Below the pieces are notes generated by a model that was not told the origin of the DNA, searched no databases, and saw only the letters and a program-made list of their open reading frames with translations. A stretch of 64,000 nucleotides of DNA from sequence record NZ_CP110904.1; one strand, 5' to 3'. The stretch is from a plasmid. Below, in pieces: positions 877 to 56,567 of this stretch; the stretch's first letter is position 1; each line of letters starts with the position of its first letter. Both the position numbers and the translations under genes were made by a program.

Positions 877-975
877 TCCTCTGGTTCAGTTCGCAGAAAA
901 GTAACTTTGGATGTAATGAGGCGTACGGGCATTCATCCAAATGCTTTTTTGGACGCCTCTGCTGATATGAATACC

Positions 976-1029
976 CTTCCCTGCTTCCCTGCTTCCCTGC
1001 TTCCCTGCTTCCCTGCTTCCCTGCTTCCT
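976..1029. repeat. Tandem 9-bp microsatellite (CCCTGCTTC x ~6)
   Basis: Direct reading: ccctgcttc repeated head-to-tail about six times, ~100 bp after the repA stop. Confidence 0.9.
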
Positions 1030-1399
1030 TTCTTACTTTTGCTTAAGCACCCTGGGAATTTTGAGCATTCGATCGAATGCTTTATTTAACTAATTTTCAC
1101 TGAGTTAGATAACGAATACTAAGCAATTGATTTTGAATGATTTAATCAGAAGTCATTCATCCAGATGCCTTTAGATAAAACTACCCATCAACGCTTGTGC
1201 ATAGTGGCTATACGTGAAAAATCCCTGTCCTTCTCATGTCACACTGAGATTTGCACAGAAAATTAAAGCCTGTAATTGTCTGGGACATGATTAGAACAGA
1301 GGCGTTTTGATAAATATCCAGTTCAAAACAGAGGTCCCATAATTAAACATAACCTCATGAAAATAAAAGAAAATCGTTTAAAAATCCCATAGTGGTGGT

Positions 1400-2128
1400 G
1401 AAAAGCATTTGCTTCAATGGGGGGAGAAAAGTGACCTTTGTGAAAAGCACTTGCTTCAATGGCGACAGAAAAGTGCCTTTTGTATAAAAGCATTTGCTTG
1501 AATGAGTTTGTGTAAGGTGCCTACGTTGGAAACCCCTGGCATGAATGAGGCGGGAAGATGCCTTTAGCTGAAAAGCATTTGCATGAATGGGACAGTAAAA
1601 AGGTGCCTTTAGCTGAAAGCATTTGCATGAATGGGGCCGCAAACGGTGGCATTGGTCGAAAAGCATTTGCATGAATGGTGCAGCAAACGGGGCATTGGTC
1701 GAAAAGCATTTGCATGAATGGGATAGTAAAAGGTGCTTTTGGTTGACAGGCATTTGCATGAATGGCGCCGTAACGGTGTCTTTGACCGGAAAGCATTTGG
1801 ATGAATCGACCTGAAAAGGTGCCTTTGGACTGAAAGTACCTCTCTTAATGGGATTCGATAGCTGAATTTCACCAAAAAGCATTTACATGAATGGAATAGT
1901 AAAAGTTGCCCTTGGTCGAAAAGCAACTGCATGAATGAGCCCGGAAAAGGTTCCTTTGGTCGAAAAGCATTTGCATGAATGGGTTTCGGATATGTGTCTT
2001 TGCTACAAAGGCATTTGCATGAATGAGGCTGGAAAAGGCGCATTGTTTGAAAAGCATTTGCATGAATGGGGCGACACACAGGATGTGGCTGAAAAGCACT
2101 TGTATCAATGGGAAAAGTGACTTTTTTA
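1400..2128. repeat. Iteron array: ~17 copies of a ~22-bp iteron (consensus GAAAAGCATTTGCATGAATGGG) at 42-46 bp periodicity, alternating with near-palindromic ~20-bp spacers
   Basis: Copies start near 1400, 1443, 1485, 1529, 1572, 1612, 1659, 1702, 1748, 1790, 1835, 1875, 1918, 1962, 2008, 2049 and 2090. Spacers are mostly AAAAGGTGCCTTTGG-like. Listed ORFs 1355-2120 on both strands are repeat-derived and spurious. Confidence 0.85.
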
Positions 2129-2409
2129 GAATGACATCCTTACACAGAGCTTTCTCAAATATCGGACTGGATGGTTATCACAAAAATGGTGAAGAGATAG
2201 ACGATGAACTTCTTCCCTATAAAGAAAAAATAACCTGCCTCACCTTCTTCAATCCGATATACACACGGTATTCACATGTGACATTCATAGGCTAAAAAAA
2301 CACCAGGCGCAATTAAGGGAAAAAAAGGGTGGTTAACAGAAAAATGAAAGAAAAATAAAAAGTATTATGCAAATGCGTTTACGTGAACTCAAATCAACAC
2401 GGAGTAATT

Positions 2410-6968: not shown

Positions 6969-7475
6969 ATGGAAAATAACATTGAACCAGGAACAAAAAG
7001 TGATTCTACTGAAAACGTGAAGCTTGAGGCGGCTAAACCTGTTGGGGGTATACGTACAACCAAAAAAGTAACTTTGGAAATAGATATCGAGAAAACCCTC
7101 AAGTATTTGATGCTAGCTGGCCTAGCTGTGCTTTTCGTGATCTATGGATACAAGGGGGCGAGTTTTGTTTATGAAAGCGTCAAAGCAATGTCGAATCCGT
7201 CCTACCAAATTGCAGTACTTGATATGCAAACTTTAAGGAAAGAATTTAATAAGCAGAATCCTGAGCCGGATTTGGTACAGTCTAAAAACAACTTTGAAAA
7301 TTACTTTAAAGCATTAATGAAAGTTTACCGTTCTCGTGGCTATTTGGTTATTGATGCATCATTAGCAGTAACAATTCCAGATAATGTTCAAATAGTCTCT
7401 TATATCGACCTTGGTGGAAGTTTTGGTGAGGTACAATCTCTACAAGGCGAAACAAAAGAAAGTGAGATACGATAA
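6969..7475 (+). CDS. Hypothetical single-pass membrane protein
   Basis: TM segment LMLAGLAVLFVIYGY. Lies within the T4SS operon. Confidence 0.45.
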   Translation: MENNIEPGTKSDSTENVKLEAAKPVGGIRTTKKVTLEIDIEKTLKYLMLAGLAVLFVIYGYKGASFVYESVKAMSNPSYQIAVLDMQTLRKEFNKQNPEPDLVQSKNNFENYFKALMKVYRSRGYLVIDASLAVTIPDNVQIVSYIDLGGSFGEVQSLQGETKESEIR

Positions 7476-8333
7476 TTGAAAAAGTTACTTTTATCTCTGC
7501 TGGTCTCTATGATCACAGCGTGTCCACCCCTTACAAATGCTGCTGAAAATGTATTAAACAACACTGATGCAGCTGCATTAATGGAAAAAGCAAAAGAAGG
7601 TGGAGTGTCCACGAAACCTTTAGAGGGCGTACTGGCGAAAATGCAAAGCTATAAGCCTAAAGATGTTATTTACATCCCGACTGGAGGTCTTTATCTGTTC
7701 CAGGATGAACGTTCGCAGTTGATGGCTGTGACCACTGATGGACGTTATACAATAACGGGTGGTAGCGTCATGGACATTCTTCAGAGAAAGTCAGTCTTAT
7801 CCGTAGAAGATGTACGAAAATCCTACTTTATTAATTTAGACGACGCCCCCTTTCCTCTTGATACTGTGGCATTGATCCCTTTAGGAAACCCAAAACTAAA
7901 AAGACAAGCCGCTATTTTTATCACGCTTGATTGTGATGGTTGCCAAGATTTAATAAAAAAATTCTATGACGAAAGAGAAAAATACCGGGTTGACATCATT
8001 TTAATCCCCTCCCCCGGTGAGCCAAAGCAAGAATTACGTCAACTATGGTGCAGTAAAGAAAAAGGCAAAGTGAATGACCTTGATATCTTGCGTTGGCTTA
8101 TGGGAAATAAGACCGATATAGAACAAAGGCTCCTGACAAAAAAAGAGGCAGAAACATGTCCGGCTGAGCCATTGGTAGGATCTCTGATGCTGGCAGGTAT
8201 TTATAAATTACAGGGCGTACCTTCAGTTGTGAGACAAGACGGACTTGCCGGTAATGGCATACCGAAAGATTTTGATTCATGGTTAAAACAAAGTGTCGAA
8301 CCCTTACTCAAAAACCCATTTGCTACTAATTAA
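7476..8333 (+). CDS. DsbC/TrbB-like periplasmic thiol:disulfide isomerase (CxxC = CDGC)
   Basis: TTG start followed by a classic signal peptide (MKKLLLSLLVSMITA). A thioredoxin-fold CDGC motif follows. The palindrome AAAGTTACTTT overlaps codons 2-5. Confidence 0.6.
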   Translation: MKKLLLSLLVSMITACPPLTNAAENVLNNTDAAALMEKAKEGGVSTKPLEGVLAKMQSYKPKDVIYIPTGGLYLFQDERSQLMAVTTDGRYTITGGSVMDILQRKSVLSVEDVRKSYFINLDDAPFPLDTVALIPLGNPKLKRQAAIFITLDCDGCQDLIKKFYDEREKYRVDIILIPSPGEPKQELRQLWCSKEKGKVNDLDILRWLMGNKTDIEQRLLTKKEAETCPAEPLVGSLMLAGIYKLQGVPSVVRQDGLAGNGIPKDFDSWLKQSVEPLLKNPFATN

Positions 8334-17166: not shown

Positions 17167-17684
17167 GATTGCTCCTGTTCCAAAAATGCAAGACTTAATG
17201 ATTGCGTAACTAGCGTTGTGTTTGTTTCACCCGAGCCGGGAAATTCATATCTAATACTGAACAACAATGGCAATGTGGGTCCATCACTCGACTTTTGTGA
17301 AATTTTGGTAAATGCGTTATTAATAAACGTTAATTGGTCAGTGTTGTCGTAGCAAAGGCCGAGTAAACCAACAGTCGGAACAGTAAACAATGAAACTGAA
17401 CCAGGTGTTAATAACAGTTTCCCACGGGATGAATAGGTGCAACGGCTTCCGGCTAGATTTAGATCCGATAACTCAATAAATTCCTTGGTACCATTCTTGG
17501 CGAGCAGCCAGACATCAGTGCCTGAACTCTCAATCAGAAAAGTAACTTTTCCGTCGGTATAGGATTCACTTTTGTTGCTCATCACAGGGTCGAAACCTAC
17601 TGAGGGGAGGTCTGCAATTTTGCTTCCAACCGACTGACAGCCAGTCAAAAGACAGATAAAAATCACTCCGGCTGCTTTAATCAT
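17163..17684 (-). CDS. Lipoprotein (lipobox LTGC)
   Basis: MIKAAGVIFICLLTGCQ. Translationally coupled to neighbours. Confidence 0.55.
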   Translation of the reverse strand: MIKAAGVIFICLLTGCQSVGSKIADLPSVGFDPVMSNKSESYTDGKVTFLIESSGTDVWLLAKNGTKEFIELSDLNLAGSRCTYSSRGKLLLTPGSVSLFTVPTVGLLGLCYDNTDQLTFINNAFTKISQKSSDGPTLPLLFSIRYEFPGSGETNTTLVTQSLSLAFLEQEQS

Positions 17685-22590: not shown

Positions 22591-23014
22591 TTACAAGAAA
22601 CTATTACCTCTTGCAGTGCTCGGTTTAACATTTGCGGGGGCTTACTCGCTTTTCAACGCAAGACCGGCGGAGCCCGACTTGTACGATTTTACTGGCAAAG
22701 TTCTTAAAGCCACGTCTGTTTTCCAACCCTGTGATAAAGAATCCACACCTTCGTTAAACGTTAAAATTGCAGATAACGGAAACATACATATCAATGGTGT
22801 TGCATCAAAAGTTACTTTTGTTGAAAAACTTACGCCTGATGAAATTTCTGTTAAGTGTGCTGGGTTACCAATCAAAAATGCTCGGCTTGTGCATACGAGC
22901 TCTTACACCATGATAATTTCGGAAGGAAAAGGTGGTTTTGTTATTTCGGATTTGATACGCATCCAGGATAATGAAGTCATCTCCGGTATATGGTTCTTTA
23001 AGAAGAGAGCATAG
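22580..23014 (+). CDS. Small exported protein (signal peptide)
   Basis: MKVNYKKLLPLAVLGLTFAGAYS, with GAGGA RBS. Contains the palindrome at 22808. Confidence 0.45.
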   Translation: MKVNYKKLLPLAVLGLTFAGAYSLFNARPAEPDLYDFTGKVLKATSVFQPCDKESTPSLNVKIADNGNIHINGVASKVTFVEKLTPDEISVKCAGLPIKNARLVHTSSYTMIISEGKGGFVISDLIRIQDNEVISGIWFFKKRA

Positions 23015-23685: not shown

Positions 23686-26600
23686 GTGTTCGTCATGAGA
23701 AAATCAGGTTTATGTTTAACCCTGTTGTTTTCTTTAATTGCCTCGATTAAGTCGGTACATGCCGAGGCAATTATGATTTCCGGAAAACTCCAGGCTGATA
23801 TGCCTGCCGTCACGTTTAATCCCGGCCCGGGCGATTTTGTTGCATTCGTAAACAATAATATAATTACTGCCTCAGGCTCTGGAACCGCATGTAATGTGAC
23901 GGTTGATGATCGTGCGACATCAACGGTGGATAATCTTGTCTGCTTCTTTGAGTGGCTTCCAAATAGCTCTGGATTTACTGCTAACGGGTTCACGTTAACC
24001 GGGATTCCAAACAGCTCAGGAGACCTAAAACTCCCTTACAAAATTTCCTATTTTTCCGGTACAGAAAGGCAAAAAGTAGAAGTAGTGAAAGGGGAGTATA
24101 CAGTTAATGCTCTCGTACCGGTTAAACCGACGATCACCGGCCTAAAGTCGTCTATGAATGGGCTGGTTCAAGAGGGTTACACACTTAAATCTTATATTAA
24201 GGATGAAGTGATCAGGAGTTTTGCCGTCTCAGTAGAACCCCGCAATTTTGTGCAATATATTTCTATCGGATCGGGTTCTGCCTGTGAAGTCCCTATTGGT
24301 GGGACCAGTTGCACGATCGATGTAGGAAGTATTAAAGTAAGTGATTCGGATTTATTGATAGGTTCACGGGAAATAACTGTCACCGCTAATTCGAAAAATA
24401 ATTACTTTGCCCCTCCTGAAGCGCAAAAGCTTACGCTGACCTGGGACTACCGTCCTCCTGTTGTTGACCATACTCTCTGGAATTTCACTGATGAAGCTAA
24501 AACTATCAGTATTGGCGGTCAGCAAATCTATACCGGCGCTAAAACGGTAGCTGTAGTCGTCAAAGTGCCCCAGGAAGAGACTGAAGGCGAGTGGTGGCTA
24601 CCAACAGCTATGACGCTGACGATGGTGCCGGACGGGGTTTTCAAGCCGACAACAAAAGTAACTTTGGATGACGGTACGGTTATCGACTTTAAGCAATCCT
24701 GGGCAACACCGATACGCCGTACCCTCCAGCCCGTGAGCGGACCCCAGAAGGTCGGCGATGAGTATCTGTATATCTTTGACTTAACAGACCTGACGAATGG
24801 CTCTTATGCCGCCACGTTCACTATAGAGAATACTAGCAAGAATACGTCTACGTACAATGAGCCCGAAAGCAAACTGATGCTTTCTGATAACCCCACACTC
24901 ATGGTACTTAAGGATGGGGCAGCGCTGGCAAAACGAGCACCTGTTTATTTCTTAAATGAAATTATTGTTGCCGCATTCCAGGGGCAGGCCGGGGTTGCGG
25001 ATATTAAAGCCGTTACTATCGATAACAAAGTTGTTGAACTCACCCCAACGAACTACAAAGGCATTTATTATCTGCCGGTGGGGGATGATCTAGATGTGAA
25101 TGCTGACCACGAAATCACAGTCGTGGCGGAAAACCTGTATGGCAAGATTGTGACATTCAATACCACTTTCACGTATCAACCGACAGGGTTTGCGCTTAAA
25201 AACTTAGAAAAAGACGTCACCTTGTATTCTCGCGTTCGGCAATATACCGATCTGATGAGTCAGACAGCCGGTGATAAATGCACTCTCTTTACTACGGAAG
25301 AGAACGCGCAGGCTTATCTTGAGTGGTATGGCGGCAAATCTGATATCACTGCCTGTTACCCTCAGTGGAACAATGTACCGGACGGGCTTGAATTTTACTT
25401 TAAAGGCAGGACGCCAGGACTTACGGGGTTCTTCAATAAAACTGGCGAAAACCTGCTCGATTACCAAGTCTATATGATAAACGGTAGAGGCTCTAAAGCT
25501 GTGTCGGCCAAATACCGCCGCGTATTGACAACTCAACTGCCATATAACCCAATCCTTACTTACAAGAAAAATAAGTTGGTAACTGGGATCAACCCTAACA
25601 CTGCACTAGCGTACACGACAGGTGGGGAAGCTGCTCGCCTCTTGGCAAAAGTGGTACCTGCTGATGTGACAGTCTATGTTTCGCAAAACGGGGGTGAGAA
25701 CACAAAAACGACGTTTAAAAACCGTTCATCAAACAACGATGCAACTACATTCGTTCAGCGTCTGAAAGTAGCCGCAGCCCCACTGTGGACGAAAAATGTA
25801 TTCGACATTGCTGTAGAGTACTCGAAGGACCCGACAATGCGGACCGCCGATACACTTAACGTGTATACGGTCCCCGACTTCAGCATTCGGGCTACGATGG
25901 AAGTCGAAGACAAAAAGACGGCTACTACAATGGAATTACCGTTGAAGGTGTCAGTTGGGCGCTATAACAATTCAACTCGCAAAAGCTCATTTAGCCGGAC
26001 GACAATGGGTGACTGGGATGTAACCATTTACGCTCAGAAAAGTATCTATGGTAAAGATCCAGAAACAGGCCGTTTTAAAACGACGTATGAACGTACCCCA
26101 TTAACCGAGGCATTGCCGGTGAATGATGCCGGGGTAGTCGAAACAAAAATCAAAATCGAGAATATGGACCTTGGGAACATGCGTCTTGTCGGGATAGCTA
26201 AAGTCCGTTCGCCTTTCGCTGATTTTGAATTGACCCGGGAAACAAGTGCGGTCGGCATACGTGTGTATAAGGGTGAAGAGCTGGAGGGTAATCTCTCAAA
26301 GAGCCTGATTATCGGCCGTATCCCGCTCAGTACGCTTGTGAACTTCAAATCGGCCAGCACAGCTAACTCTGATGCGCTTGCTCCTACCGAGTGGCAGGAG
26401 TCGTCAGACAATGGGCAGACATGGACGATGCTTTCGGACATGACTGGGAAGAGAAGTATTTCAATCAGAAAAACTGACGTCGGTAAGTGGCTCTACAGGG
26501 CCAAGATGACCAACAAGTTTACGTCAAAAGTGTCTTATAGCGACGTGCTGACAGTTGTAACGTACAAACAGCCTAAGCTAAGTATTGATGTTGCGGAAAT

Positions 26601-28046: not shown

Positions 28047-28271
28047 TCTTTGGTCTTTTGAATTGATTTCGTCGGAAAAGTTACTTTGCATGAACGGTGA
28101 TACAAGTCTCATGAATCACCAATCAATGGCAATAATGAAAGAAAAAGAGGGGCGTAAATTATCAGAAATAACTGGCTTTGTAGAAATAATGACGGTCCAA
28201 AACATGGATAATAGGTATTAAGGTAATGTAAAAATTAGTCCTTTGGTTCCGGTATCTGAGAGAAGCAGGTT

Positions 28272-30412: not shown

Positions 30413-31479
30413 TGAGCGTGCCGGTGAAGAAGCTAAAAAAGTTACTTTTGGAAATTTTGGTTGCTGTCATGCTGTCATTTTCCCTGCCTGCAATGACCAT
30501 GGCCGCAGATACCGGCGTCCCGGGAGCAATGTGCCAGTCAGCTGGTGTGTGGCAGGGACTAATCAAAAATATCTGCTGGAGTTGCATCTTCCCGATGCGG
30601 ATCATGGGAATTGGTGCGGCACCTGAAGGTGCCGCACCCTCACGCCCCGGCTGCTATTGCACAGACCAAAATGGGATACCAGAAATCGGATGGCAGTTAA
30701 GTTTTTTCCAGCCAGTTAAAATCGTAGAAGTAGTGAAAAGCCCATGGTGCAGCCCATTTTTGGAGGGAACCATGTTGCAAAAATCACAGTTCGATATTGG
30801 CAAGAGCAATACTAACCAGCCTATGACTGCTACAGAAGCCGGATTCTACGACGTACATCTCTGGGAATTCCCGATCATGACAATGTTGAAATTGCTGATA
30901 ATCGGTGAATGTACAGCAGAACCTTATATTGATGCCAGTCTGACGTATATCAGCGAAGTTGATCCAATGTGGGAAAGTGATCTGTTGACGCTCGTGCTGA
31001 ACCCCGAAGCTGTGGTATTTGCAAACCCTATTGCCTCAATGGTATGTGCTGCTGACTGCGTGGCAGTGACTGCCGGAAAGGATAATTTGGCTGCCTATTT
31101 TTGTGCCGGTTGTGATGGTAACTTGTACCCGCTTACAGGGCACGTCTATGCGAATGATGATGCCGTCAGAACCAGTTCCCTTATTACACAACGACTACTA
31201 ACTAAGTTACATCGGCAAGGAATGCTAATGAGAACAATGGGAGCAGATGCAATGTGTGAGAAAACATGGGAATACTTCACTCCTCGTTCACAATATAGAC
31301 TTTCAATGCTTTACCCAACGCCAGAAGCTAAAGGGCCTGATTGCTGCCATAGGCTTGGTGACTCCGTACATGATTGGTCAACACTGAAAGGTGGACGAAA
31401 GAAAATAGGCATAGATAATTATGTCTATATGCTATGGAGATATAATGACTGTTGCGTCCGTTTTAATCCCGGTGCTTAA
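30412..31479 (+). CDS. trhU: TraU-like T4SS protein (Cys-rich periplasmic)
   Basis: GTG start, signal peptide, more than 15 Cys. Size ~355 aa, typical of TraU. Confidence 0.65.
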   Translation: MSVPVKKLKKLLLEILVAVMLSFSLPAMTMAADTGVPGAMCQSAGVWQGLIKNICWSCIFPMRIMGIGAAPEGAAPSRPGCYCTDQNGIPEIGWQLSFFQPVKIVEVVKSPWCSPFLEGTMLQKSQFDIGKSNTNQPMTATEAGFYDVHLWEFPIMTMLKLLIIGECTAEPYIDASLTYISEVDPMWESDLLTLVLNPEAVVFANPIASMVCAADCVAVTAGKDNLAAYFCAGCDGNLYPLTGHVYANDDAVRTSSLITQRLLTKLHRQGMLMRTMGADAMCEKTWEYFTPRSQYRLSMLYPTPEAKGPDCCHRLGDSVHDWSTLKGGRKKIGIDNYVYMLWRYNDCCVRFNPGA

Positions 31480-34400
31480 TTGCAGGAGGCTTTTAATATG
31501 AAAACTAGGAAATTAATTGCTTCAACAATTATTGCGTCTATGCTCGCAAATACTATGAGTTGGGCATTTTACGTTTCGCTCATTAACATGGTTATGACAC
31601 CAAAAATATACGCAGCTGATGCGATATTTGATCAGTTGGAAAACAATTTTGACCTTGCGAACCCCAACGCAAATCGAAATGCAACAACAAGTGCTCAGGA
31701 TATTGTAGAGAAGTACAAGAATGCTGATTCCGGGGAAAACCTGAGCGGAAAAATATCAGATAAATATGTAGGTAAAGCAGATTCAATAAACTTAGACGTT
31801 GGGAAGTACGGGGCGCTGAACTCAAACGAAAGTGTTATGAGTAATGCTGCATCTGACGGCAAGTCGATCGGTAAGACCGTACAGTTACCGAGCATGACGG
31901 GCGGTACGATCAACTCTAATTATACGAAAGAGGGGGCAAAGTTACTTTCCAGAGACAGTAGCGGTAACATTGGTATAAGTAACAACACGAATACAACGGC
32001 AGGAACCAAAACCAGTACAGGAGAGCTATTCAGCTCAGAGCAGAAGCACAGTGATATTCAGTTTAATTCCGGTGGCCGGTATGGAGATGAGGATGGATTC
32101 ATCAATGACATCAAAAATCGAAAAAGTCAGCTGTTTGAAGCGCAGAGTTACGATGGGGTTGCCTACCGTACACTGGTGAATGCAAATAAAGACAACCCAG
32201 CATCTAATATTAAACCTAACGACCCTATGTTCAATGCTGGCCGAAATGAAATTGGTAATGCTGTAGCCGGTACAGGCAACTGGCTACAGAGTTGCAATAC
32301 GGAAACAAAAAAACAAACTATTACTACGCACTATCCAGATTATAAAGAGTTTTACTGCAACTCACCCAAGAAAGATAACTTTAATAGTTGCACAATAACT
32401 CGTGATTTTTCCGTACCTGTTTATATCTCAGGTGGTAATGGTGATATGTCTATGTGCGGGGATAATTGTGTGAGGGTCTGGTTCGGCAGAAGAGACGACA
32501 ACTATTGGAACGATGGAGTATATGACAACTCATTAACCTTAAAATTTCATCCTGATGCAAAGCTTGCAACTGCGAAAATAATTAATGCAGAGTGGGATGA
32601 TCATATGAGGGTCACGCTTGATGGAACGCAGATTTTTGCTCACATAGATGGAGAATATAGAAGTAGCAATTATCCATCACCACAAGGGCCATGGGAGCTG
32701 AAAAAATCATGGAAGCTTGACAAAGTCTACGATATTACCGACCAGGTAAGAAACTCTGTATATCAGGAGGTGGACCGTGAAGTGACAATGGCGTCACGTG
32801 TTTGGGTAGGTGGCGGTGGGGAAGGCTATTTTGAAGTTGAGCTGACTTTTGAAAATATGAAGCTGGAGGATAAACATATACAGGAACCCGCAGGTTGTTT
32901 TGATGCAGTACAAACGCCGAATTCATTCTGTCGGTTTGACCGGTTTGTGAACATGGATGTCGGTACAAAGCGGCTCCCGGAAACTGTGCTTAAAATGGCC
33001 ACACCGCTTTATAAAGGCGATACCGGGTTCTTAACCTGGAAAACAAACCTTGAAGGTTACTTCTGTGATCCCCTGGCGAAGGAAAAGCTGTGCTCATATG
33101 ATGCGAAGGGAAACATCATGAAAGACGCCGCAGGAAAAGACCTCTGCTACAACTACGACGACATTAAAAATATGCCTGACGCTTGCGGCACATATAAAAA
33201 TGATGCTGCGTGTGTGCTCGATACACAGACTTGTGCAGAAGGTTGGTTCGATGAAGGCACAAATACATGCTACATGTATGAGCAGAAATATACGTGTGAC
33301 AGAGGTAAGGACGTCGTCAGAGAGGTAGAGTCACAGACTAACGCCTGTGTAGGTATGATCCCATGTTCTGGTGGAACATGCGAAACCGGCCCAAAAGAGG
33401 AAAACAATGATTTTGGGAAAGTGGCCGCGTACTCAAACATGGTTCAGTACATGCAGGGTGAGGCAAAATGCGAAGATCCCAACGACCCTAATTCCTGCTC
33501 CGTCTTTGAGGGGAAAGCAGAATGGTGCGGCAGGTCCGTTGGTTTTGTGAACGGGCTGGCCAAAACAGATTGCTGCGAACAGCCACAGGGTACCGCTGGC
33601 TCACTAGAGGCGATTATGCTGGCTGGGTCGATGATCCGAAACACGAACTGGACACGAGTGAATGCTCAGCTGGTAAGCTGGACCGGTGGGGAGAGTGGAA
33701 CCTGGGCTTCAATGGCTAACTCGGTTGGTGAATGGACAGCATCGGCAGGTAAAACTGTTGGTCAGATGTGGAACAATGTCACCAGTTCGCTAACCAGCGT
33801 CTACGAAAATGTGGCCGGTAACCTTGGGCGAACAGTAGGTTCATCCACTGCTGGTGGAAGTGGTCAACTTGCTAAGGAGACAATGAGCTCTTTCGGGCTT
33901 GGTACCCTTAAGAAGATGGCCATGGAAAAAGCATATGACTTGCTTCCCGATACAGTAAGGGACTTCGTTTTTAAAAATGTAGCGACAACGGGTGGCGAAG
34001 TAGTCTTTTCAGCAGCAATTCAAAACTTTATGCTTGCATTAAATGTCATTGGCTGGATTTATACCGCATATCAAATAACAAAAATGTTGCTTGAAATGCT
34101 TGTGGCCTGTGATCAAAAAGAAATGGAAGCGTCTATTCATAAAAATCAGAAATCCTGTTTCACACTGGATACTGAACGCTGTGTTAAATATCTCAATATG
34201 GGATTTACAAAGAAGTGTGTTAAAAAAGCAACAGACATGTGCTGCTACAATTCAATGTTATCTCGCGTGATTATGCAGCAGGCGTATCCTCAACTTGGAA
34301 TAGATCCGGTTGCTTCGAGTTGCGTTGGATTATCAATTAGTCAAATACAGAGATTAGATTTTGATAAGATCGATTTAACTGAATGGATTAACGATGCCGT

Positions 34401-35670: not shown

Positions 35671-37566
35671 GTGAAGCGAACAAAAACCAGTCTTGTAAAG
35701 AAAAATCCCTCTAAATTAAATCGTATAATCAGTGGGACTAAATATTCAGAGGCTTTTATGGGTAAACCAACAGATGAGCAAAGGGTCATCATTGAAAATG
35801 CAAACGCAAATAATATGGTTATTGCAGCACCAGGGTCTGGGAAGTCATTTACGATGATCGAGGCTGTGATCTCAATCCTCAGGCAGTTCCCATATGCCAA
35901 GGTTGGAATGGTCACATTTACTCGCGCTGCAACAAATTCATTGGCTGAAAAGCTGAAAAGTCGGTTAAGTAAAAAAGACCAGGATAGGGTGCTGGTAAAT
36001 ACTTTCCACGGCTTTATCCGGATGCAACTGGACATGGTCAACTGGAAGGGCAAGATGCTGATTAGCTCGGCACAGCGTTCTGTAATTCATCGTGCGTTAA
36101 AGGAGTCAGGCGCGCCTTTCCGTTACCCGGAAGCTGAATTTGCTATTGATGCGATTGGAAGGGAAATGGATACAGACATCATTTCAGTTCGCCATACGCG
36201 TCAACAAACCCACTTGTTCAACACATACCAGGCAATATGTCAGAAAGACCACGTAGCTGACTTAAATGCACTCTCACGTTTTGTCGTGGGCCAGATGCAC
36301 TCAGGAAAAATGCAGCCACTAAATTTGACGCATTTAGTTGTAGATGAGGTGCAAGACACCGACTCGATTCAGTATGCCTGGATCGCACTACATACAAGGG
36401 GTGGTGTTAACACGAGCATCGTAGGGGATGATGATCAGGCAATCTATTCTTTCAGGGCCTCCGGCGGGGTAAAAATATTCCAGCAATTTGAAAAACAATT
36501 CAGGCCAAACATATTTTATCTAAATACCTGTTTCAGGTGTGAACCAGAAATTCTTAAGGTTGCAGGGGCATTGATTGAAAAAAATGTTTACAGATACGTT
36601 AAGGATCTGCGTTCAGCTAAAAGTGGTGGTGGAAAAGTTAATTTCCGCTCATATGTTGATATGGATGAACAGATTCAAGGCATCCTCAATCTAATTAACC
36701 AAGACCCAAATGGCTGGGCAATCCTTAGCAGAGGTAATGCACATCTTGATCAGCTTGAAAGCCTCATAGAGCAGCCGGTTCTTCGTTATGGAGGCAAGTC
36801 CTTTTGGGATGAGAAAGAGACGAGCGACGTACTGCATCTGATGGCTTTCTTTCGGCAGTCCAACGATGTTCGATTAATGAAGAGGGTGCTGGCGCTTTTC
36901 GGTGAAAATGAAGAAGTTTTGGATCAAACAGCATTTAGCATGAAAGGGAGAAAAGTAACTTTTGGTGAACTGAGCATCCCAGATGCAAGTTCCCTGGAAA
37001 CAAGAACACTTCACTCAAACTTCACCCGGTTTACACAGGAGACTCGGGATAAAGTTGAAATCGAAAAGCGCTTCGCAAATCTGATTAAATGGATGGAATT
37101 GTCATCAATAAAAATGAGGACTCAGAAAGGTTCACCTTCACTGACACGAATTGCGTTAGATACCTGTAAGCAATGGGCTGAGAAAAATGGCTGGCAAAAC
37201 ATGATAAATCGAGCTGCGGCGATGTGTTTGGGGCCTAAAAAGAAGGATGAGGAATATACGCCGGATAAAGTAGTTTTATCGACATTGCATGGTTCGAAGG
37301 GGCTAGAATGGAAAAAAGTCATTATTATGAGTTGCAATGCTGACCAGATCCCAAGCAAGAGATCAGTGGGGCAGGAAGCGATTGAAGAAGAGAGAAGACT
37401 TCTATTTGTAGGATTTACACGAGCAGAACAACAGCTGCATGTAATGTGGTACGGTGATCCGTCCTTCTTTTTAAGCGAATGCGCCGAAGAAAAATTGAAA
37501 GAGGCAGCGAATATGAGAATAGAATCAAATTTAACAGAAGAATTTTCCAATCAGTATTTACAATAA
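35671..37566 (+). CDS. UvrD/Rep-family (SF1) DNA helicase
   Basis: Motifs AAPGSGKSF (Walker A), VVDEVQDTD (II), VGDDDQAIYSFRAS (III), STLHGSKGLEWKKVI (V), LLFVGFTRAEQQLHV (VI). True start may be the ATG at 35758. Confidence 0.75.
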   Translation: MKRTKTSLVKKNPSKLNRIISGTKYSEAFMGKPTDEQRVIIENANANNMVIAAPGSGKSFTMIEAVISILRQFPYAKVGMVTFTRAATNSLAEKLKSRLSKKDQDRVLVNTFHGFIRMQLDMVNWKGKMLISSAQRSVIHRALKESGAPFRYPEAEFAIDAIGREMDTDIISVRHTRQQTHLFNTYQAICQKDHVADLNALSRFVVGQMHSGKMQPLNLTHLVVDEVQDTDSIQYAWIALHTRGGVNTSIVGDDDQAIYSFRASGGVKIFQQFEKQFRPNIFYLNTCFRCEPEILKVAGALIEKNVYRYVKDLRSAKSGGGKVNFRSYVDMDEQIQGILNLINQDPNGWAILSRGNAHLDQLESLIEQPVLRYGGKSFWDEKETSDVLHLMAFFRQSNDVRLMKRVLALFGENEEVLDQTAFSMKGRKVTFGELSIPDASSLETRTLHSNFTRFTQETRDKVEIEKRFANLIKWMELSSIKMRTQKGSPSLTRIALDTCKQWAEKNGWQNMINRAAAMCLGPKKKDEEYTPDKVVLSTLHGSKGLEWKKVIIMSCNADQIPSKRSVGQEAIEEERRLLFVGFTRAEQQLHVMWYGDPSFFLSECAEEKLKEAANMRIESNLTEEFSNQYLQ

Positions 37567-37939
37567 TGACTCTATGTTGTATAAGAATATTGAGCTTTGT
37601 ATTATCGCTCCCACATTTCAAGTAACTGACAAAAGTTACTTTGCGCATTAAGCGCGGATTCAGCCGTGAAAAGCGGCCAGCTTACTTAAGCTGCAAGGCA
37701 CCACCGGCAAAATGTCACCTTTGTCGCTGGTGCCTTTCCTATGCCCGTAAAAAGGCAAACCGAATTTACCAAATCGTAACTAATTTAGCTCTTGATTGAG
37801 CTATTTTCGTTGCGTACTTCTAATGCCAGAAAGTATAAATCAGGCGGTTCATAGCTTACGGGAGATGAATGACAGGCTTTGCCTTTGTGTTGGAATATTC
37901 CATTATTCCTTCCTTCTTACTATATATAGGTGACCCCAA

Positions 37940-42994: not shown

Positions 42995-45007
42995 ATGAAA
43001 TTTGATTTGAAATCTTCACCCCGCCATATTCAACGCCTGACGAATATAGCCAGCGTGATAAGCGGTATAAGTGGTCTTAATGTTGTAATAGACAATAAGG
43101 TACATACACCTTATTTCAACAGCGAAAAGAACGTTTGTGTATTACCTAATGGTGATTATAGCGATGAGAAATTCGTCAAGCTAATTGAAGGGTTTATATG
43201 TCATGAAGCTGGACACGGTCGCTATACAGAACATGAAGTATACCGTGAAGCTTTTGTTGGGGAACTGATTAATGCAGATGGCTTCATCAGTATAGATGAT
43301 AAGCTGAACGCTGAATTTCAAACCCTTAAACAAAAGAAAATCGCATATGCCCGGGCTTACCGTCTACATGGACTTATTAATCTCTTTGATGATGTCCAGA
43401 TGGAAGAGAAAACGGGTATTGACTATCAGGAGGCAAAAAAGCGCCTCGCGGTAAGTTATGCCTTGATGGTTGAAGCTGGGCGAATGACGGTTGATGTTTC
43501 TTCAAGCCCTCAAAACCCTGTTCAGTTTATTGAAATGTTCCTGCTTAATACATTGCGGGTTAACGTTCTCCAGCAAGAAGGGCATAAAGAAACGCTTGAT
43601 CCATTTTTCGATTATGCAAAGAAAATCCTTGAGCCTGTAATTTTAGAAGTTGATGAGATTATTCATCAGGCTCTAAGTTGCAAAAGTACGCAAAATTGCG
43701 ATTCTCTGGCGCGTAAAACCTTGGCTCTTTTAGAGCGTTTACGGGATGAAGCCAAAGAGAAACAGCAAGAAGAGGATCAGAATAAAGACCCGCAAAACGA
43801 CACAGACAATTCATCTGGCTCTGAGAATGAACCTGATTCCGAAACCAATGGTGACAACCAGGGTGAAGGGGATGGAGATTCCGAAGAGCAAGACGATGAT
43901 GCTGGTAATGGTAAAGCACCTATGGAAGATAATGAGCCGTCAGAGCAATCTAAAGGGGATGAAGAAAGTGCTGAGAGCGGTAACGGTGAACCTGATGGAG
44001 AGCCCGAAACCGATGAATCGGCTAACCCTGACTCGTATGATGCTGACGGAACTCCTTCCCAAATCGACAGTTCCAATGGAAATCCTTCCGATGGGGAAAG
44101 TAACTTTTCTCCTGAGCAGTGGAGTATCCTTGCCAAATTGCTGGATGATTTTCTTAACAGCGATGAGGAAAGTGAAGATTTTCATGAGGCTCTTGCAAAT
44201 GAAATCTCCGTAATTGCTGCCAGTGTGTCGGATGAGGTTAAAGCTGAATTTGGTGCAAATGAGTGGGATCTTCCAGATTTGCTTATTGATCTGAATGTCT
44301 ACAATGAAGCATTAAATATCAGTCAGACTCTTGGGGCAGACTTATCTGTTTTACAGCAGGTAAAAATGCGTGGTCAATTTAAAACCCGTGATAGAGGCTT
44401 GTCATTCGACATTAATCGATTGATCCAGTCTCCGATGGGTGTGAGGGATGTATTCCGGTCGCAAAGCGAATCTAAAAACCGGGGCCACGTCGGCTTGGTT
44501 ATTGTTCGTGATATTTCAGGTTCTATGATTCTGGATCACCGTTATATCCACGCAATTAAGACTGACCTTGCATTAACTTTGGCGATTGAAGCTAATTCAA
44601 AAATGCACGTTGCTAATGTGATTTATCCGTTTGTCGACAAAGACTTTGAATTTATCAAAACGTTTGATGAAAACGCGGAAGAGACGCTTTCAAAATTTTC
44701 ACTCGGCTGTAAAGGGAATAATACCCCAACGGGTTCCGCCTTAATGGCTGCTGTAGAATTGTTACTTGAAAGCCAGTTTGACAGGAAAATTGTTTTCCTT
44801 ATTACTGATGGTTATCCGACAGAGTCTGATTACACCATTAGTGATGTTCTTACGGTAGCTGAAAGTAACGGTATTGAAATCGCTGGTGTAGGCATTAAAA
44901 CTGATGAGTTAATTGGTTTTGATGAGGGCACCTTCGTAAATGTTGATGATATTTCTTTACTGCCGAATGTGGTCAGTAAATTAGTACATCAAATTCTATC
45001 TAATTAA
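42995..45007 (+). CDS. CobT-like protein with C-terminal von Willebrand factor A (vWA) domain and a long acidic D/E/S/N-rich linker
   Basis: MIDAS-like VIVRDISGSM and TDGYPTESD motifs. A ~120-aa acidic low-complexity segment. Forms a pair with the AAA+ gene at 40358. Confidence 0.7.
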   Translation: MKFDLKSSPRHIQRLTNIASVISGISGLNVVIDNKVHTPYFNSEKNVCVLPNGDYSDEKFVKLIEGFICHEAGHGRYTEHEVYREAFVGELINADGFISIDDKLNAEFQTLKQKKIAYARAYRLHGLINLFDDVQMEEKTGIDYQEAKKRLAVSYALMVEAGRMTVDVSSSPQNPVQFIEMFLLNTLRVNVLQQEGHKETLDPFFDYAKKILEPVILEVDEIIHQALSCKSTQNCDSLARKTLALLERLRDEAKEKQQEEDQNKDPQNDTDNSSGSENEPDSETNGDNQGEGDGDSEEQDDDAGNGKAPMEDNEPSEQSKGDEESAESGNGEPDGEPETDESANPDSYDADGTPSQIDSSNGNPSDGESNFSPEQWSILAKLLDDFLNSDEESEDFHEALANEISVIAASVSDEVKAEFGANEWDLPDLLIDLNVYNEALNISQTLGADLSVLQQVKMRGQFKTRDRGLSFDINRLIQSPMGVRDVFRSQSESKNRGHVGLVIVRDISGSMILDHRYIHAIKTDLALTLAIEANSKMHVANVIYPFVDKDFEFIKTFDENAEETLSKFSLGCKGNNTPTGSALMAAVELLLESQFDRKIVFLITDGYPTESDYTISDVLTVAESNGIEIAGVGIKTDELIGFDEGTFVNVDDISLLPNVVSKLVHQILSN

Positions 45008-45393: not shown

Positions 45394-45413
45394 GCCAGAT
45401 AAGAGAGAACAAA

Positions 45414-47520: not shown

Positions 47521-48399
47521 ATGAAATTAGCTACAGATCTTGTCAATGCAGTTCTGATAAAGGATGGTGTTGTACCGGTTTCCATTACTGAGATGCCTGT
47601 ACAGTCTCTTGTAAATCCTTTGACACAAGTGCATCTCAGCCTGTACCTGAAAACAACGCATTTATCGCGGTTCGTCCCTGACTATGTCGAGACTCTGAAA
47701 GATTGTCCGGTATCGTATGATATCGGCCTTGAACTTCAGCAGTGTATCAGCAGTGCTGAATTGCTCTGCGAAGACATGGAATCGCTTGAATTTATCTCTG
47801 TATGGATAGAACTCTATACGTGTAATTCAAAGCAACAACGGTTTGAGGAAAGTAACTTTTCTCTTCGTTCCGAAGATATCGAGCTGGCTAAGATGCTAGC
47901 TTGTTCCCATGATCTCTTGATTAGCCAGGCTGCTTGTTTCTGGCTTTTATATTTTGATGACTTCATGAGATATGTGCGTAATAGACTCTGTACTTTACTC
48001 AGAGAAGTTTTAATACTGATTGCCGGACTGCGGAATGCATTCTTGCACCGTAATGAAGATCAGTTAATTAAGAGAGTGAAGTACGGGAATGAAATGCTGG
48101 AGGTAACTCTTAAAGCTATTGCACTATGTTCAATGGACCGGTATCTGAAATCATTTACCTCTTTACGAACAGAAGCGGCAGCTTCGGGTTTTATCAAATG
48201 TGTTAAGTCTTATATCAGTACAGGGTGGAGACATGGTTATATAGTCTGTCACTATTATCGAAATGGACAGTCTCTTGGTAAGTCATTACCACTTTTTATA
48301 AGTGAGACGTCTGAATACAGTATACAGAAACGAGTAAATCGTCTTATATCTTCCACGATATCAGGGCGAAATAAAGATTTAGGTCTTTCTGATTTCTGA
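47521..48399 (+). CDS. Hypothetical protein (292 aa)
   Basis: ORF preceded by dyad element E9. Confidence 0.45.
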   Translation: MKLATDLVNAVLIKDGVVPVSITEMPVQSLVNPLTQVHLSLYLKTTHLSRFVPDYVETLKDCPVSYDIGLELQQCISSAELLCEDMESLEFISVWIELYTCNSKQQRFEESNFSLRSEDIELAKMLACSHDLLISQAACFWLLYFDDFMRYVRNRLCTLLREVLILIAGLRNAFLHRNEDQLIKRVKYGNEMLEVTLKAIALCSMDRYLKSFTSLRTEAAASGFIKCVKSYISTGWRHGYIVCHYYRNGQSLGKSLPLFISETSEYSIQKRVNRLISSTISGRNKDLGLSDF

Positions 48400-51222: not shown

Positions 51223-51398
51223 CCGGTCCTCATTCTCACCTCATCGTAAAAAGTAACTTTGTTCGACTAAATGATTGCGTTCACTTTCCTGTTTAACTGG
51301 CAGGATAGAATGATTTAGAAAAACATATTTTTATCCACCCACTGGGGAAGTTGCTCCCCTATGGGGCACTTCCTTTCAATTTTCCTGAGGAAGTGAAA

Positions 51399-54017: not shown

Positions 54018-54554
54018 ATGAAAAGCAATCTTCATCCTTTTGGAGCGTCTGGCACGAAACGAGTACTCAAAACGGACATTGCGTTGTCGCTGCTCTGTTG
54101 GATGTTTACCAGTCCCTTTAGCAACTGGACCGAAAAATATTTTACCGGCACAGAGGTGCCTGAAGCACCGATGCCCGAGTTGGGTCAGGCACCTGAGGCT
54201 ATCTTTCGATTTGTGCTTAATGATGATGGTTTTGATGTTGGTTATGACGCTGTGGGTATGGATCTCTGCTGTTTCTCTATCCCACTATCTGCAATGCCAA
54301 CAGTAAATCTCGACGAAGAAGAGACGTTATCCAGGCTGACTGGCGAAATGATCCACGGCGTACTGCTTTCTCTGCCTGAGTACCTTGAGATGCCAGACAG
54401 GCTTGTCTATCAGCTAAATGATGAGGTAATGGCGTTCAATTCACACTGTGGCAACGGAATTCTCCATGGATGGACGTCAGCGCAAGAGCTGTGGCGAAAC
54501 GAGATCTTGCCACGCACACCTATTTTGATGCAGCACACCTCAGTCATTCACTGA
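54018..54554 (+). CDS. Hypothetical protein (178 aa)
   Basis: ORF only. Confidence 0.45.
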   Translation: MKSNLHPFGASGTKRVLKTDIALSLLCWMFTSPFSNWTEKYFTGTEVPEAPMPELGQAPEAIFRFVLNDDGFDVGYDAVGMDLCCFSIPLSAMPTVNLDEEETLSRLTGEMIHGVLLSLPEYLEMPDRLVYQLNDEVMAFNSHCGNGILHGWTSAQELWRNEILPRTPILMQHTSVIH

Positions 54555-54570
54555 GTTCCGGGGGCTCTGG

Positions 54571-55017
54571 ATGAAAAAGCGACTTTACCTGTTGGAATGG
54601 AAACTTTGTGAGACACGAGCCTGGTTAGGATGGATGGTTTTTTGGTTGATCATCAGTTTTATGCTGTTATCTGCGATGTTGATGACAGGGCATTTGCTAA
54701 ACAAGTTTGTCCTAGCGCCCGTCTGGCTGTTTATCTGGTGCTCTCCCTGGTTATGCTTCTTGTTGAAGGTACGCGTGACCGAGATTGATAAAGGGCTGGT
54801 GAATACCCTTCAGCTCGGAGGTTTACCGGTTTGTCGGTGGAGCCGTCCTGTAGTTCCCGGCATTTGGTCTGTTGATCGAATGAACGGCCGCTACAGGCTG
54901 AACCGTATTGGCACGGATGGCCTAACGGTACATTATCCGTGGCGCTTGCATTATCAGCCTTTGTTCCTGACTCCGGATAACCAGATTTCTGATATTAACG
55001 GGGGTAAACATGAATGA
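54571..55017 (+). CDS. Membrane protein (2 TM)
   Basis: ORF with hydrophobic segments. Stop overlaps the next start. Confidence 0.45.
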   Translation: MKKRLYLLEWKLCETRAWLGWMVFWLIISFMLLSAMLMTGHLLNKFVLAPVWLFIWCSPWLCFLLKVRVTEIDKGLVNTLQLGGLPVCRWSRPVVPGIWSVDRMNGRYRLNRIGTDGLTVHYPWRLHYQPLFLTPDNQISDINGGKHE

Positions 55018-55618
55018 AAAATATGACGCTGTAGTGAGTGCAGCTACCTCCTGTCTGTTGTATGTCCGTGAAAACGGAAGGTCAGGCCTCGGGGAATGCC
55101 CGGTGGCGTATTCGAATGAACTCATCAACAGATGGCTTAGTTCGGCTGAACGTCGTAATTTGCATTCTCGTCAGTGTTTGCGTTCGATCCGAACCATTCT
55201 GAAGCAAGCCAGAAAGTGTCGTCAGCCTGATTTTAAGAGCGTGATGCATTTGCTGGTGGAAGGTAATGGCGTTATCCCGGATGTTACAGTATCGGATTTG
55301 GGTAATGTGCAGAGTATACGAAATGAACTTATTGGACTGGGCTGGTGGGTGAAGTTCGGTGTACCGCTGGACTGGCAGCGTATCAATCTGCAACACAGGC
55401 CTGTCAGTTTTGGCCTTTTGTCCGACCTTAATCGTTGTTTCAGGCATGACGGCCAGCAGGCTGAACCTCTGCCCCTTTATACAACAGGCAATTCCGATGA
55501 ACTGCGGAAGGTGTTGGAAAAGTACAGCTACCGGCTGCGTATCGCATCTTCAGAAGTGGTTGAGGATGTAACGGTGTTGCGCTGTTTTATTGAAACCGGA
55601 GTGATGAATGTCCAGTGA
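55010..55618 (+). CDS. Hypothetical protein (202 aa)
   Basis: Translationally coupled (ATGAATGA overlap). Confidence 0.45.
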   Translation: MNEKYDAVVSAATSCLLYVRENGRSGLGECPVAYSNELINRWLSSAERRNLHSRQCLRSIRTILKQARKCRQPDFKSVMHLLVEGNGVIPDVTVSDLGNVQSIRNELIGLGWWVKFGVPLDWQRINLQHRPVSFGLLSDLNRCFRHDGQQAEPLPLYTTGNSDELRKVLEKYSYRLRIASSEVVEDVTVLRCFIETGVMNVQ

Positions 55619-56567
55619 AAATTTACCTTTCTACCGTGATCGGATTCTGGAGCGAATTGAACAGCTCAGAGCCTTTCTGAATAACCATCAGCCGGTGATG
55701 GCGGAACTGATGACTGTGGGGGCCGTCACGCGCCACGAAGAGCGGCTGAAAGAGGTTACCCCAATTGAGGTGAGTACTATTTCTGATGCCTCTGTAGATG
55801 ACATTATCCGTGTATTTCAGGATTTTTGTATCGATGACATCGATGTACTCAGCAGGAATTCAACGAAAGTAACGACCAAATATCCGGGGCTGATTATTGT
55901 TCCTGAGGGTGCCGAACTGCTGAGCAGAATTATTCGCGATATCAACGACGCCAAAACTGACTTTGCCTCAGCTATGAAAAGGGTAAATGATGAGAAACAC
56001 ATCCGCTTTGAGGAAGTTCACCGTAAACTTCCCGGCCTTGTGACAGTGGCGTCTACTCGCAAAATTATGTTTGTGGAGGCACGGCTTAAAAAAGTTACTT
56101 TTTGCTGGCGACTAAACCGGAACCAGGTAAAAACCAACGCCAGTGAGCTCATCGCGATGCTGGATAAGCGTCGTACGGCAGCGGTCAAATCGCCAGCGAC
56201 CACTGACCTGACAGTGGTTGCGAACATCGATAGGGCGAAGGCATTACTTGAAAGAAAGGTCCTACAAGACGGGGATGCGTTACGTCTTTGTCGGACCAAT
56301 ACCTTCCCGGTTCCGATCGCGCATCTGTTCTCATACCGTCCTGAAGGCACGGAGCGTGGAAGTAGCAAATACGCCGAGACGGATTACAAGGTGGTGAAAG
56401 CCTCACTGCCCATTTTCGCTGTTGGACAAAAGCCAGCATTTAAAGGTCTTCAGAACTGGGTGCCTGCGTCGGATGACGCACCGTCAAATGCACGAAGGAT
56501 CAACCATAGCTACACGGAGCTTGTACCCGGTGCGGATCTTGGCATTTTCATTATGAGTAAGGTCTGA
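55608..56567 (+). CDS. tus: Tus-like replication terminus (Ter) binding protein
   Basis: [36 protein letters not shown] aligns with E. coli Tus [48 protein letters not shown] aligns with RPVKVQPIARVWY. 319 aa versus 309 aa for Tus. Confidence 0.7.
   Translation: [319 protein letters not shown]

Follow-up and report, generated by a model that had tools for sequence, protein, structure and literature searches.

A dispersed 11-bp palindrome of IncHI plasmid backbones and an orphan ParB-family protein as its candidate binder

Why would a plasmid carry the same 11-bp palindrome over and over, between its genes and inside them, across tens of kilobases? The question is raised by a 64,000-nucleotide stretch of plasmid DNA (sequence record NZ_CP110904.1; the window, below, means this whole stretch), in which a first-pass annotation made from the sequence alone had noticed 15 perfect copies of AAAGTWACTTT. 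Here we count the motif in the window and in related plasmids, describe how it is conserved and placed, and propose a protein that may read it. On balance we think it probable that the copies are binding or loading sites of a 401-amino-acid (aa) orphan protein of the ParB family, probably serving plasmid-wide transcription control and autoregulation of that protein.

The window holds 16 exact copies, starting at 898, 7065, 7481, 17539, 22808, 24655, 26899, 28077, 30438, 31938, 36952, 37632, 44097, 47849, 51250 and 56091, against a chance expectation of 0.07 in dinucleotide shuffles and of 0.07 and 0.22 under order-3 and order-5 Markov models, so that chance and base composition are ruled out as the cause. 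The enrichment reported by the first-pass annotation therefore stands and its count becomes 16: the copy placed at 7075 was the end of the one at 7065, and the copy at 31938 had been overlooked. The signal is unusually sharp, with 8 one-mismatch variants in the window against about 3 expected and 39 two-mismatch variants against about 31. When the flanks are symmetrised, the motif grows into an extended palindrome of 13-15 bp, rAAAAGTWACTTTTy, and the longer strings said to be shared between 897 and 24654 and between 44096 and 47848 are indeed present and match this extended consensus. Written out with both arms intact, the site is GAAAAGTWACTTTTC. The central base is A in 8 of the window copies and T in the other 8, and the sites therefore have no polarity. 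A single repeated segment containing all copies, which had been named as a finding that would undo the case, is ruled out, the flanks of the copies being unique.

Many large plasmids of Salmonella, Citrobacter, Enterobacter, Klebsiella and Leclercia, pNDM-CIT (NC_019360.1) among them, match the window at more than 99.8% identity. Near-identical plasmids that we fetched were typed by MOB-suite as IncHI1B, MOBH and MPF-F, and we take this IncHI1B/pNDM-CIT-like group to be the one often named IncHI3. The window itself is an IncHI (pNDM-CIT-like) Tra2 backbone that carries repA with its iterons, trhL/E/K/B/V/C, htdT, rsp, trhF/W/U/N/I, parA/parB, parM, a conserved block of unknown function and a Tus-like gene; beyond about 58 kb its GC content rises to 0.48-0.50 and no exact motif copy occurs. 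On pR17.4855_328k, a close relative available as a complete 328-kb plasmid (NZ_CP100723.1; pR17 below), there are 46 copies, all in IncHI backbone segments, and none in the roughly 145 kb of accessory DNA, which comprises an insert resembling an integrative and conjugative element (ICE), a resistance region and an island at 251-296 kb. R27, the classical IncHI1 plasmid of 180 kb, has 42 copies against 0.45 expected under an order-4 Markov model. Allowing any central base raises these counts from 46 to 51 in pR17 and from 42 to 46 in R27. AAAGTWACTTT is the commonest 9-, 11- and 13-mer of both plasmids and their sole enriched palindrome. Two IncHI2 loci contain 11 copies in 41 kb and 11 in 43 kb, Klebsiella IncHI1B/FIB plasmids contain 17 in 40 kb, 17 in 43 kb and 11 in 13 kb, and two more lineages, reached through protein homologs, contain 7 copies in 21 kb each. 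The motif dominates every IncHI-type locus examined, and a 40-kb stretch of an IncC plasmid that shares these hosts (NZ_CP079693.1) has no copy. Counted over whole plasmids of several IncHI subgroups against random controls, much as the first pass had proposed as a check, the motif is enriched about 100-fold or more.

Do the copies persist for the sake of the DNA or of the proteins encoded across them? Each of the 16 window copies has an orthologous copy in R27, where the flanks are 77-91% identical (chance about 3e-12). In IncHI2, where the flanks are 67-81% identical, ten copies can be aligned: eight are exact, a ninth carries G at its centre and the tenth is lost. Copies intact in both plasmids compared differ at no base but the degenerate central W. 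Within the coding copies, third-codon positions are identical to R27 in 30 of 30 cases, against 75% in the flanks, and to IncHI2 in 24 of 26 (92%), against 45% in the flanks (P about 5e-7). This conservation at synonymous third positions means that the constraint acts on the DNA, and a protein-coding constraint is ruled out as the cause. A Klebsiella-type plasmid whose TrhN is only about 65% identical to that of the window shares the positions of the copies in rsp and the Tus-like gene and at the beginning of trhU. The copies are a site class under purifying selection at the DNA level, independent of coding; the selection suspected from the spread of the copies over reading frames is borne out by both the orthologous positions and the synonymous sites.

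Placement adds a second layer of order. According to the annotation tables of pR17, about 20 of its 46 copies are intergenic, against about 15% of intergenic DNA (an enrichment of about 3-fold; P about 7e-7). One intergenic copy adjoins each of the two rep genes, two copies about 485 bp apart lie between trhR and mobI, an interval taken to be the oriT region, in an arrangement that recurs in R27 and IncHI2, and a further pair lies between a HAD gene and traG. Several copies stand at most 30 bp past a stop codon. The density is about one copy per 3.5-4 kb of backbone, and the copies are more evenly spaced than chance. In backbone-only coordinates of two plasmids, the coefficient of variation of the spacing comes to 0.76 and 0.70, where random placement gives 0.97 (P 0.02 and 0.004); once clusters are merged, the values are 0.64 and 0.55, with 0.83 as the fair null (P 0.03 and 0.002). 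For 83-89% of the backbone the nearest site is no more than 2.5 kb away, compared with 71-72% under random placement.

Which protein might read these sites? The densest cluster on pR17, three perfect copies about 118 bp apart, lies directly upstream of the gene for a 401-aa protein (WP_032610476.1, annotated as 'DNA-binding protein'; pR17 233409-234614), near Tra1 and outside the window. Upstream of the same gene there are two perfect copies in R27 (gene at 92336-93541), two in IncHI2, five in the Klebsiella type and two in each of two lineages whose protein is 44-46% identical. All lie within about 350 bp, except that in the Klebsiella type they extend to about 580 bp. Across these six lineages with 2-5 upstream copies, the identity of the protein ranges from 35 to 100%, and the proximal copy stands 95-121 bp before the ATG in all six while the surrounding DNA is unalignable between most of them. 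A promoter-like TTAAAA-N16-TATWAC, conserved between IncHI1, IncHI2 and IncHI3 (pR17 at about 234.7 kb, locus L005; R27 at about 92.2 kb, L009; L012 at about 19.85 kb), stands about 10-25 bp ahead of the proximal copy, the distance being 10 bp in IncHI3 and about 25 bp in IncHI2. Since the proximal site falls at or shortly after the predicted transcription start, the layout suggests autorepression. A scan of genome contigs for paired sites returned mainly chance pairs or unrelated tandem repeats of AT-rich genomes; eight of its enterobacterial matches are upstream regions of IncHI ParB-like genes, besides four other enterobacterial matches. Two Klebsiella grimontii contigs (L047, L056), where the motif reaches 5-6 copies per 8 kb and the fetched stretch contains no ParB-like gene, probably belong to another IncHI-like plasmid. 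A chromosome stretch from a metagenome-assembled genome of Babeliales (L054) has 9 copies in 8 kb, apparently within an unrelated repeat.

The 401-aa protein matches the Pfam domain HTH_ParB (PF17762; 23.6 bits against a cutoff of 22.6), and its helix-turn-helix (HTH) aligns with those of Caulobacter ParB structures 6s6h and 6t1f. Over residues 67-206 it scores 31.6 bits against TIGR00180 parB_part, below the curated cutoff of 58.45, and judged by its sequence it is a divergent relative of ParB and not a canonical ParB. The Pfam domains KorB and KorB_C were not found in it at E <= 0.01, HTH_ParB being the only domain reported, and its sequence match to KorB 8qa8 has E = 0.85. In both respects, the KorB domains and the curated ParB score, it differs from the known systems. 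The segment GACRIRA at residues 99-105, preceded by an FNTR box, aligns with GERRFRA of Bacillus subtilis Spo0J (6sdk) and follows the pattern GxxRxxA, the nucleotide-binding box of an N-terminal ParB/Srx domain, and the Spo0J/ParB alignment spans this box together with the HTH; the IncHI2 ortholog has GACRIRS in its nucleotide-binding box. An AlphaFold2 model built with 19 homologs (mean pLDDT 72) is confident over residues 13-250, disordered over about 80 residues (250-328) and ends in a helical C-terminal domain (CTD). It matches ParB bound to cytidine tri- or diphosphate (CTP, CDP), Noc, and KorB 8qa9, the last being the best global match (TM 0.63). The model thus depicts an orphan ParB with a KorB-like architecture of N-terminal domain (NTD), HTH, disorder and helical CTD. 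No ParA gene lies next to the gene, whose neighbours are small hypothetical genes, and the ParA-binding motif [LFI]G[KR]G[LFI], as defined in PMC12704722, is absent from 7 orthologs of the protein.

How might such a protein work? A dimer would recognise the palindrome, (r)AAAAGTWACTTTT(y), through its ParB-type HTH and then, if it behaves like KorB, VirB, BisD and ParB, shut into a CTP-gated clamp that slides or spreads across the neighbouring few kilobases. With about 45 backbone-only sites, one every 3.5-4 kb, the protein could therefore reach nearly the whole conserved backbone, so that both replicons, the oriT region, the transfer operons and its own promoter would be covered and acquired accessory DNA would be spared. 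The likeliest output would be plasmid-wide control of transcription, either as KorB-like repression or as modulation of H-NS silencing, together with autoregulation. An identical palindrome that is dispersed over the plasmid and includes the promoter of the regulator, both rep genes and the flanks of the oriT region follows the pattern of a KorB-type operator set. That the copies form a plasmid-wide operator set comparable to the KorB operators of RK2 had been suggested by the first-pass annotation, and the suggestion gains support from the confinement to the backbone, the enrichment and a KorB-like candidate with 2-5 copies in its promoter; binding by that candidate is what we infer.

The closest known system is KorB and its operator OB on RK2, followed by the dispersed parS sites of IncC plasmids. 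Like the IncHI protein, KorB is a plasmid ParB-family protein with an NTD, an HTH, a long disordered linker and a CTD, and like the IncHI motif its operators are palindromes of odd length with a degenerate centre, dispersed over the backbone at promoters and away from them (OB is TTTAGCGGCTAAA, from an oligonucleotide in PMC11790492). KorB is autoregulated and, as a sliding clamp dependent on CTP, can silence promoters at distances of up to 1.5 kb (PMC11790492). It has 12 sites on 60 kb (title of reference 20 in PMC11790492), whereas IncHI plasmids have 42-51 sites on 160-180 kb. Within the IncC/KorB partition pair KorB plays the part of ParB and binds ParA, whereas the IncHI protein is an orphan without the ParA motif; it has no known KorA-like partner, and its binding and function are predicted. 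IncC plasmids are MOBH/MPF-F relatives, and they too spread a palindrome (core TTTCACATGTGAAA) across the backbone and place it in the promoter of the parB operon; they have 14 dispersed parS sites, with ParB binding demonstrated by electrophoretic mobility shift assay (PMC10954446). On the IncC plasmid NZ_CP079693.1 (locus L139), the palindrome (A)CTTTCACATGTGAAAG(T), which corresponds to the parS sites of PMC10954446, occurs 7 times in 40 kb, at 290, 3874, 4333, 9648, 12984, 24028 and 27443. The IncC system differs in that its binder belongs to a partition operon, parA-parB-053, and has a KorB domain, that the site sequence is another one, and that sites are about three times more numerous in IncHI. 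An orphan ParB of 312 aa, a relative of the IncHI paralogs, is likewise encoded by IncC, and no site is evident ahead of its gene.

More distant parallels come from other ParB-like proteins. VirB of the Shigella virulence plasmid has only a few known sites (virS). It is likewise an orphan plasmid CTP switch of the ParB family on a large, AT-rich plasmid silenced by H-NS (PMC10770331), and IncHI backbones are AT-rich and encode H-NS and Hha homologs; however, VirB acts from sites upstream of the promoters that depend on it (PMC10770331), while the roughly 45 IncHI copies lie mostly in genes. BisD of ICEclc is a ParB-like CTP clamp with a long linker that loads at palindromes, spreads and controls transfer genes (PMC12409273), but it has two bisS sites and spreads over at least 50 kb with its partner BisC, whereas the IncHI protein would use many short-range sites and has no known partner. 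Noc with its NBS, ParB with parS and MatP with matS share with the IncHI motif exact palindromes of 13-16 bp in coding DNA that are selected as landing sites for a protein, and Noc, an orphan ParB paralog, is among the structural matches of the 401-aa model. Their tasks are chromosomal, namely control of the division site, segregation of the origin and organisation of Ter, and their sequences and proteins differ. Compared with known dispersed-site systems of the ParB family, the IncHI case is set apart by an orphan outside parAB, the presence of two paralogs, 3-4 times more sites, and sites that are mostly intragenic and regular. The first pass knew of no described equivalent for IncHI plasmids, and none came to light in the literature that we covered by sequence string and by topic, where neither the motif nor the function of the 401-aa protein is described; the sequence papers of R27 (2000) and R478 (2004) lie outside that coverage. 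A 2025 survey of the ParB-CTPase fold mentions neither IncH nor R27.

Several observations weigh against the 401-aa protein as the binder and transcriptional controller. Its recognition helix varies by lineage (SEQHLRQ against SVTHVRK, with only H and R invariant) while the motif is invariant, and the IncC orphan homolog has a similar recognition helix, yet the IncC plasmid lacks the motif. About 10% of IncHI2 records, classified by tblastn identity bands, seem to contain TrhN and a second ParB-like paralog (paralog 2) with no intact 401-aa gene, and the gene is therefore dispensable for maintenance; one example is pVet7 (NZ_OR724985.1, L140), an IncHI2 derivative typed as non-mobilizable, which has 9 copies in 40 kb and paralog 2 with no 401-aa gene. 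CTP binding is suggested by conserved motifs in the protein and by its fold, and the link between protein and sites by position and homology. Among orthologs in PLSDB there are only the IncHI-type proteins and the IncC orphan, which puts covariation of helix and motif in more distant relatives out of reach. Both paralogs have promoter sites and both occur in all lineages examined, so that presence and absence cannot separate them. Lastly, a strict sigma-70 (-35/-10) scan of 200 bp around six intergenic or gene-start copies of the window found no promoter, and so for most copies we infer the transcriptional role.

Could the copies be true binding sites that belong to a different plasmid protein? 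Paralog 2 alone, HtdA, TrhR or TrhY, the Tus-like protein or a small HTH protein are candidates, and although this alternative survives better than any other, we regard it as unlikely. Paralog 2 is its best representative: the protein has 384 aa and the Pfam domain HTH_ParB, its gene (R27 45191-46348) adjoins dam and has a promoter site, it is conserved in all lineages examined, and it is retained where the 401-aa gene is lost. In IncHI1, IncHI2 and IncHI3 that site, AAAGTACCTTT, is conserved, has one mismatch and stands 91-95 bp ahead of the ATG (pR17 record 323323, L007; R27 45096, L008; IncHI2 pVet7, L140, about 19735), and in the Klebsiella type it is a perfect copy at -117. AAAGTACCTTT was not found elsewhere among the near-matches of the window, and it may be a weaker operator for cross-regulation. 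Motif sites thus mark the promoters of both ParB-like genes, but paralog 2 has a single upstream copy that is imperfect in three lineages, whereas the 401-aa gene has 2-5 perfect ones in every lineage. Paralog 2 also differs in its recognition helix from one lineage to another (TTIAAL against MAVRQI), while the motif stays constant. We favour the 401-aa protein because its promoter always has several perfect copies and because its helix keeps H-x-R where that of paralog 2 changes. No second enriched palindrome that could serve paralog 2 was found.

The remaining plasmid proteins fit less well. No copy lies upstream of htdA or of parA, which speaks against HtdA and the partition proteins. A tie to the known partition modules, which the first pass had entertained, finds no support: the 2.3 kb upstream of parA contain no copy and no variant with up to two mismatches, and since no copy lies near parAB and a separate 54-bp array stands upstream of parA, the ParB of the Par1 module is unlikely to be the binder. 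This tandem array (10.5 copies at 85% identity, window 13466-14032) stands shortly before parA (14334). Its unit includes CTGGCGATTAAGGGGG, which apart from the motif is the k-mer repeated most often in R27, and the array is probably the centromere or a regulatory repeat of Par1, distinct from the palindrome. For Tus one can cite the homolog encoded in the window and the GTAACT that the motif has in common with the E. coli Ter core. Tus, however, binds asymmetric sites as a monomer, and about 45 fork barriers acting in both directions would block replication, so that a Tus-like binder is judged unlikely. A scan for Ter cores of the E. coli type gave one conserved weak candidate only: AACGTTGTAACCAAGATGAGT, at pR17 record 41012 (minus strand) and R27 179875, contains the E. 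coli Ter core GTTGTAAC and could be a Ter site for the plasmid Tus homolog.

The main functional rival keeps a ParB-like binder and changes its task: the copies would be centromere-like or condensation sites that compact or segregate a plasmid of 180-330 kb. The even spacing and the mostly intragenic position of the copies do resemble chromosomal parS, NBS and matS more than operators, most copies have no sigma-70-like promoter beside them, and the 14 ParB-bound parS sites dispersed on the related IncC plasmids act in partition (PMC10954446). Against this stand the lack of an adjacent ParA and of the [LFI]G[KR]G[LFI] motif, the two partition modules that IncHI plasmids already have, of which Par1 has its own 54-bp array and no motif copy nearby, and the roughly 3-fold enrichment of intergenic copies, with clusters at rep, at oriT and at the promoter of the candidate itself. 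We consider an architectural or segregational role doubtful, and a little more so than a different plasmid binder.

A chromosomal factor of Enterobacterales that the plasmid exploits is very improbable. The motif is invariant across plasmids of many enterobacterial genera, as would suit a conserved host protein, but about 145 kb of accessory DNA and 40 kb of IncC plasmid from the same hosts contain no copy, and the clusters sit at promoters of the plasmid's own ParB-like genes; to our knowledge the motif matches no host-factor site. Least credible of all is a restriction-modification or methylation target or decoy, or a by-product of composition, codon usage or a small repeat: the plasmid does encode several DNA methyltransferases and the site is an exact palindrome, but restriction targets are usually avoided and not 100-fold enriched, 11-15 specified bases exceed usual enzyme sites, the shuffle and Markov controls exclude composition, synonymous-site conservation excludes a protein-coding cause, and the copies stand in unique contexts, three reading frames and genes of both strands.

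The window copies can now be taken in order. The intergenic copy AAAGTAACTTT at 898..908, whose R27 ortholog has its centre changed from A to T, lies 22 bp past the stop of repA (RepB family) and before the iteron array. Right after it, at 976-1028, stand 6.6 tandem copies of CTTCCCTG, and an iteron-like array of about 15 units with a period of 43-44 bp, containing AAAAGGTGCCTTT and AAAAGTGACCTTT, occupies 1396-2070. A central-G variant, AAAGTGACTTT, lies at the end of the iteron array (2114..2124), and the IncHI2 ortholog of the copy at 24655 is this same variant. The open reading frame (ORF) at 6969-7475 contains a copy at 7065..7075, read as K-V-T-L, and is followed, 6 bp past its stop, by another at 7481..7491; both are kept in R27. 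Should htdT (DsbC-like) begin with the TTG at 7476, the latter would fall in its first codons and supply the K-K-L-L-L of a lipoprotein-type signal peptide; with the RefSeq start about 100 bp downstream it would be intergenic. Read from the TTG, htdT begins MKKLLLSLLVSMITAC, with a lipobox-like ITAC, and the RefSeq start would drop this signal peptide.

Further along, a copy in the minus-strand ORF 17163-17684 (17539..17549) is kept in R27 and IncHI2, and one in the ORF 22562-23014 after htdA (22808..22818) is kept in R27 and has a flipped centre in IncHI2. The rsp gene contains two: 24655..24665, with a flipped centre in R27, a central G in IncHI2 and a perfect copy at the same place in the Klebsiella-type plasmid, and 26899..26909, kept in all three. 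Between the terminator hairpin of rsp and trhF lies an intergenic copy (28077..28087) that is kept in R27, and IncHI2 has a copy in the same region (L014, 16577). Codons 5-9 of trhU, which encode K-K-L-L-L of a signal peptide, contain the copy at 30438..30448, kept in R27 and IncHI2, and in the Klebsiella-type plasmid a copy lies 8 bp into trhU. The copy in trhN (31938..31948) is kept in R27 and lost in IncHI2, and that in trhI (36952..36962) is present in both, with its centre flipped in IncHI2. Three further copies are kept in R27 and were also compared in IncHI2: an intergenic one 66 bp past trhI and about 300 bp ahead of the gene at 37940 (37632..37642), one in a VWA-domain gene (44097..44107) and one in the ORF 47521-48399 (47849..47859), the last two read as S-N-F. 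The intergenic copy between two paralogous genes (51250..51260), kept in R27, has a counterpart in the matching intergenic region of IncHI2 (L014, 39905), and the copy in the Tus-like gene (56091..56101), likewise kept in R27, has one in the Tus-like gene of the Klebsiella type (L015, 39507). After the tyrosine recombinase gene at 57791-58981 the window diverges from pR17, which has its ICE-like insert there, and between about 58000 and 64000 the sole near-match is the one-mismatch AAAGTAGCTTT at 60349.

The four intergenic copies of the first pass are those at 898, 28077, 37632 and 51250. Its remaining 11, described as lying in genes in three different frames and often encoding K-V-T-F/L, become 10 inside genes and 2 at gene starts; the frames and peptides hold, the 10 intragenic copies in three reading frames being read as K-V-T-F/L in seven cases, S-N-F in two and K-L-L in one (the table of these also lists 30438). 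As for the two gene starts it had named, the copy in the traU-like trhU is confirmed, and the one at the DsbC-like htdT holds only if the TTG at 7476 is the start.

Multidrug resistance in typhoid Salmonella is carried by IncHI plasmids, as are mcr-1, NDM and tmexCD in Enterobacterales. How these plasmids, 180-400 kb in size, regulate the genes of their backbone and what they cost the host is only partly understood, H-NS/Hha and TrhR/TrhY-HtdA being the known players. The motif offers a simple sequence signature that separates IncHI backbone from acquired DNA. A bolder extension of the 401-aa proposal, which we offer as speculation and think unlikely, is that the evenly spaced loading sites, about 45 of them, would let the clamp coat the 160-180 kb of 'self' backbone as a private chromatin layer while accessory islands and the chromosome would stay uncovered; the coat could govern expression across the plasmid, including the temperature-dependent, H-NS-linked transfer of IncH plasmids, and could shield or organise the backbone, with the second paralog as a further layer of control. 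At the more modest level of a site network read by the 401-aa protein, about 45 operators together with a named candidate regulator provide a testable handle on replication, transfer and the cost of carriage, and, if the reading is true, the sliding-clamp paradigm of KorB would extend to a larger plasmid family, to an orphan ParB and to many regularly spaced sites.

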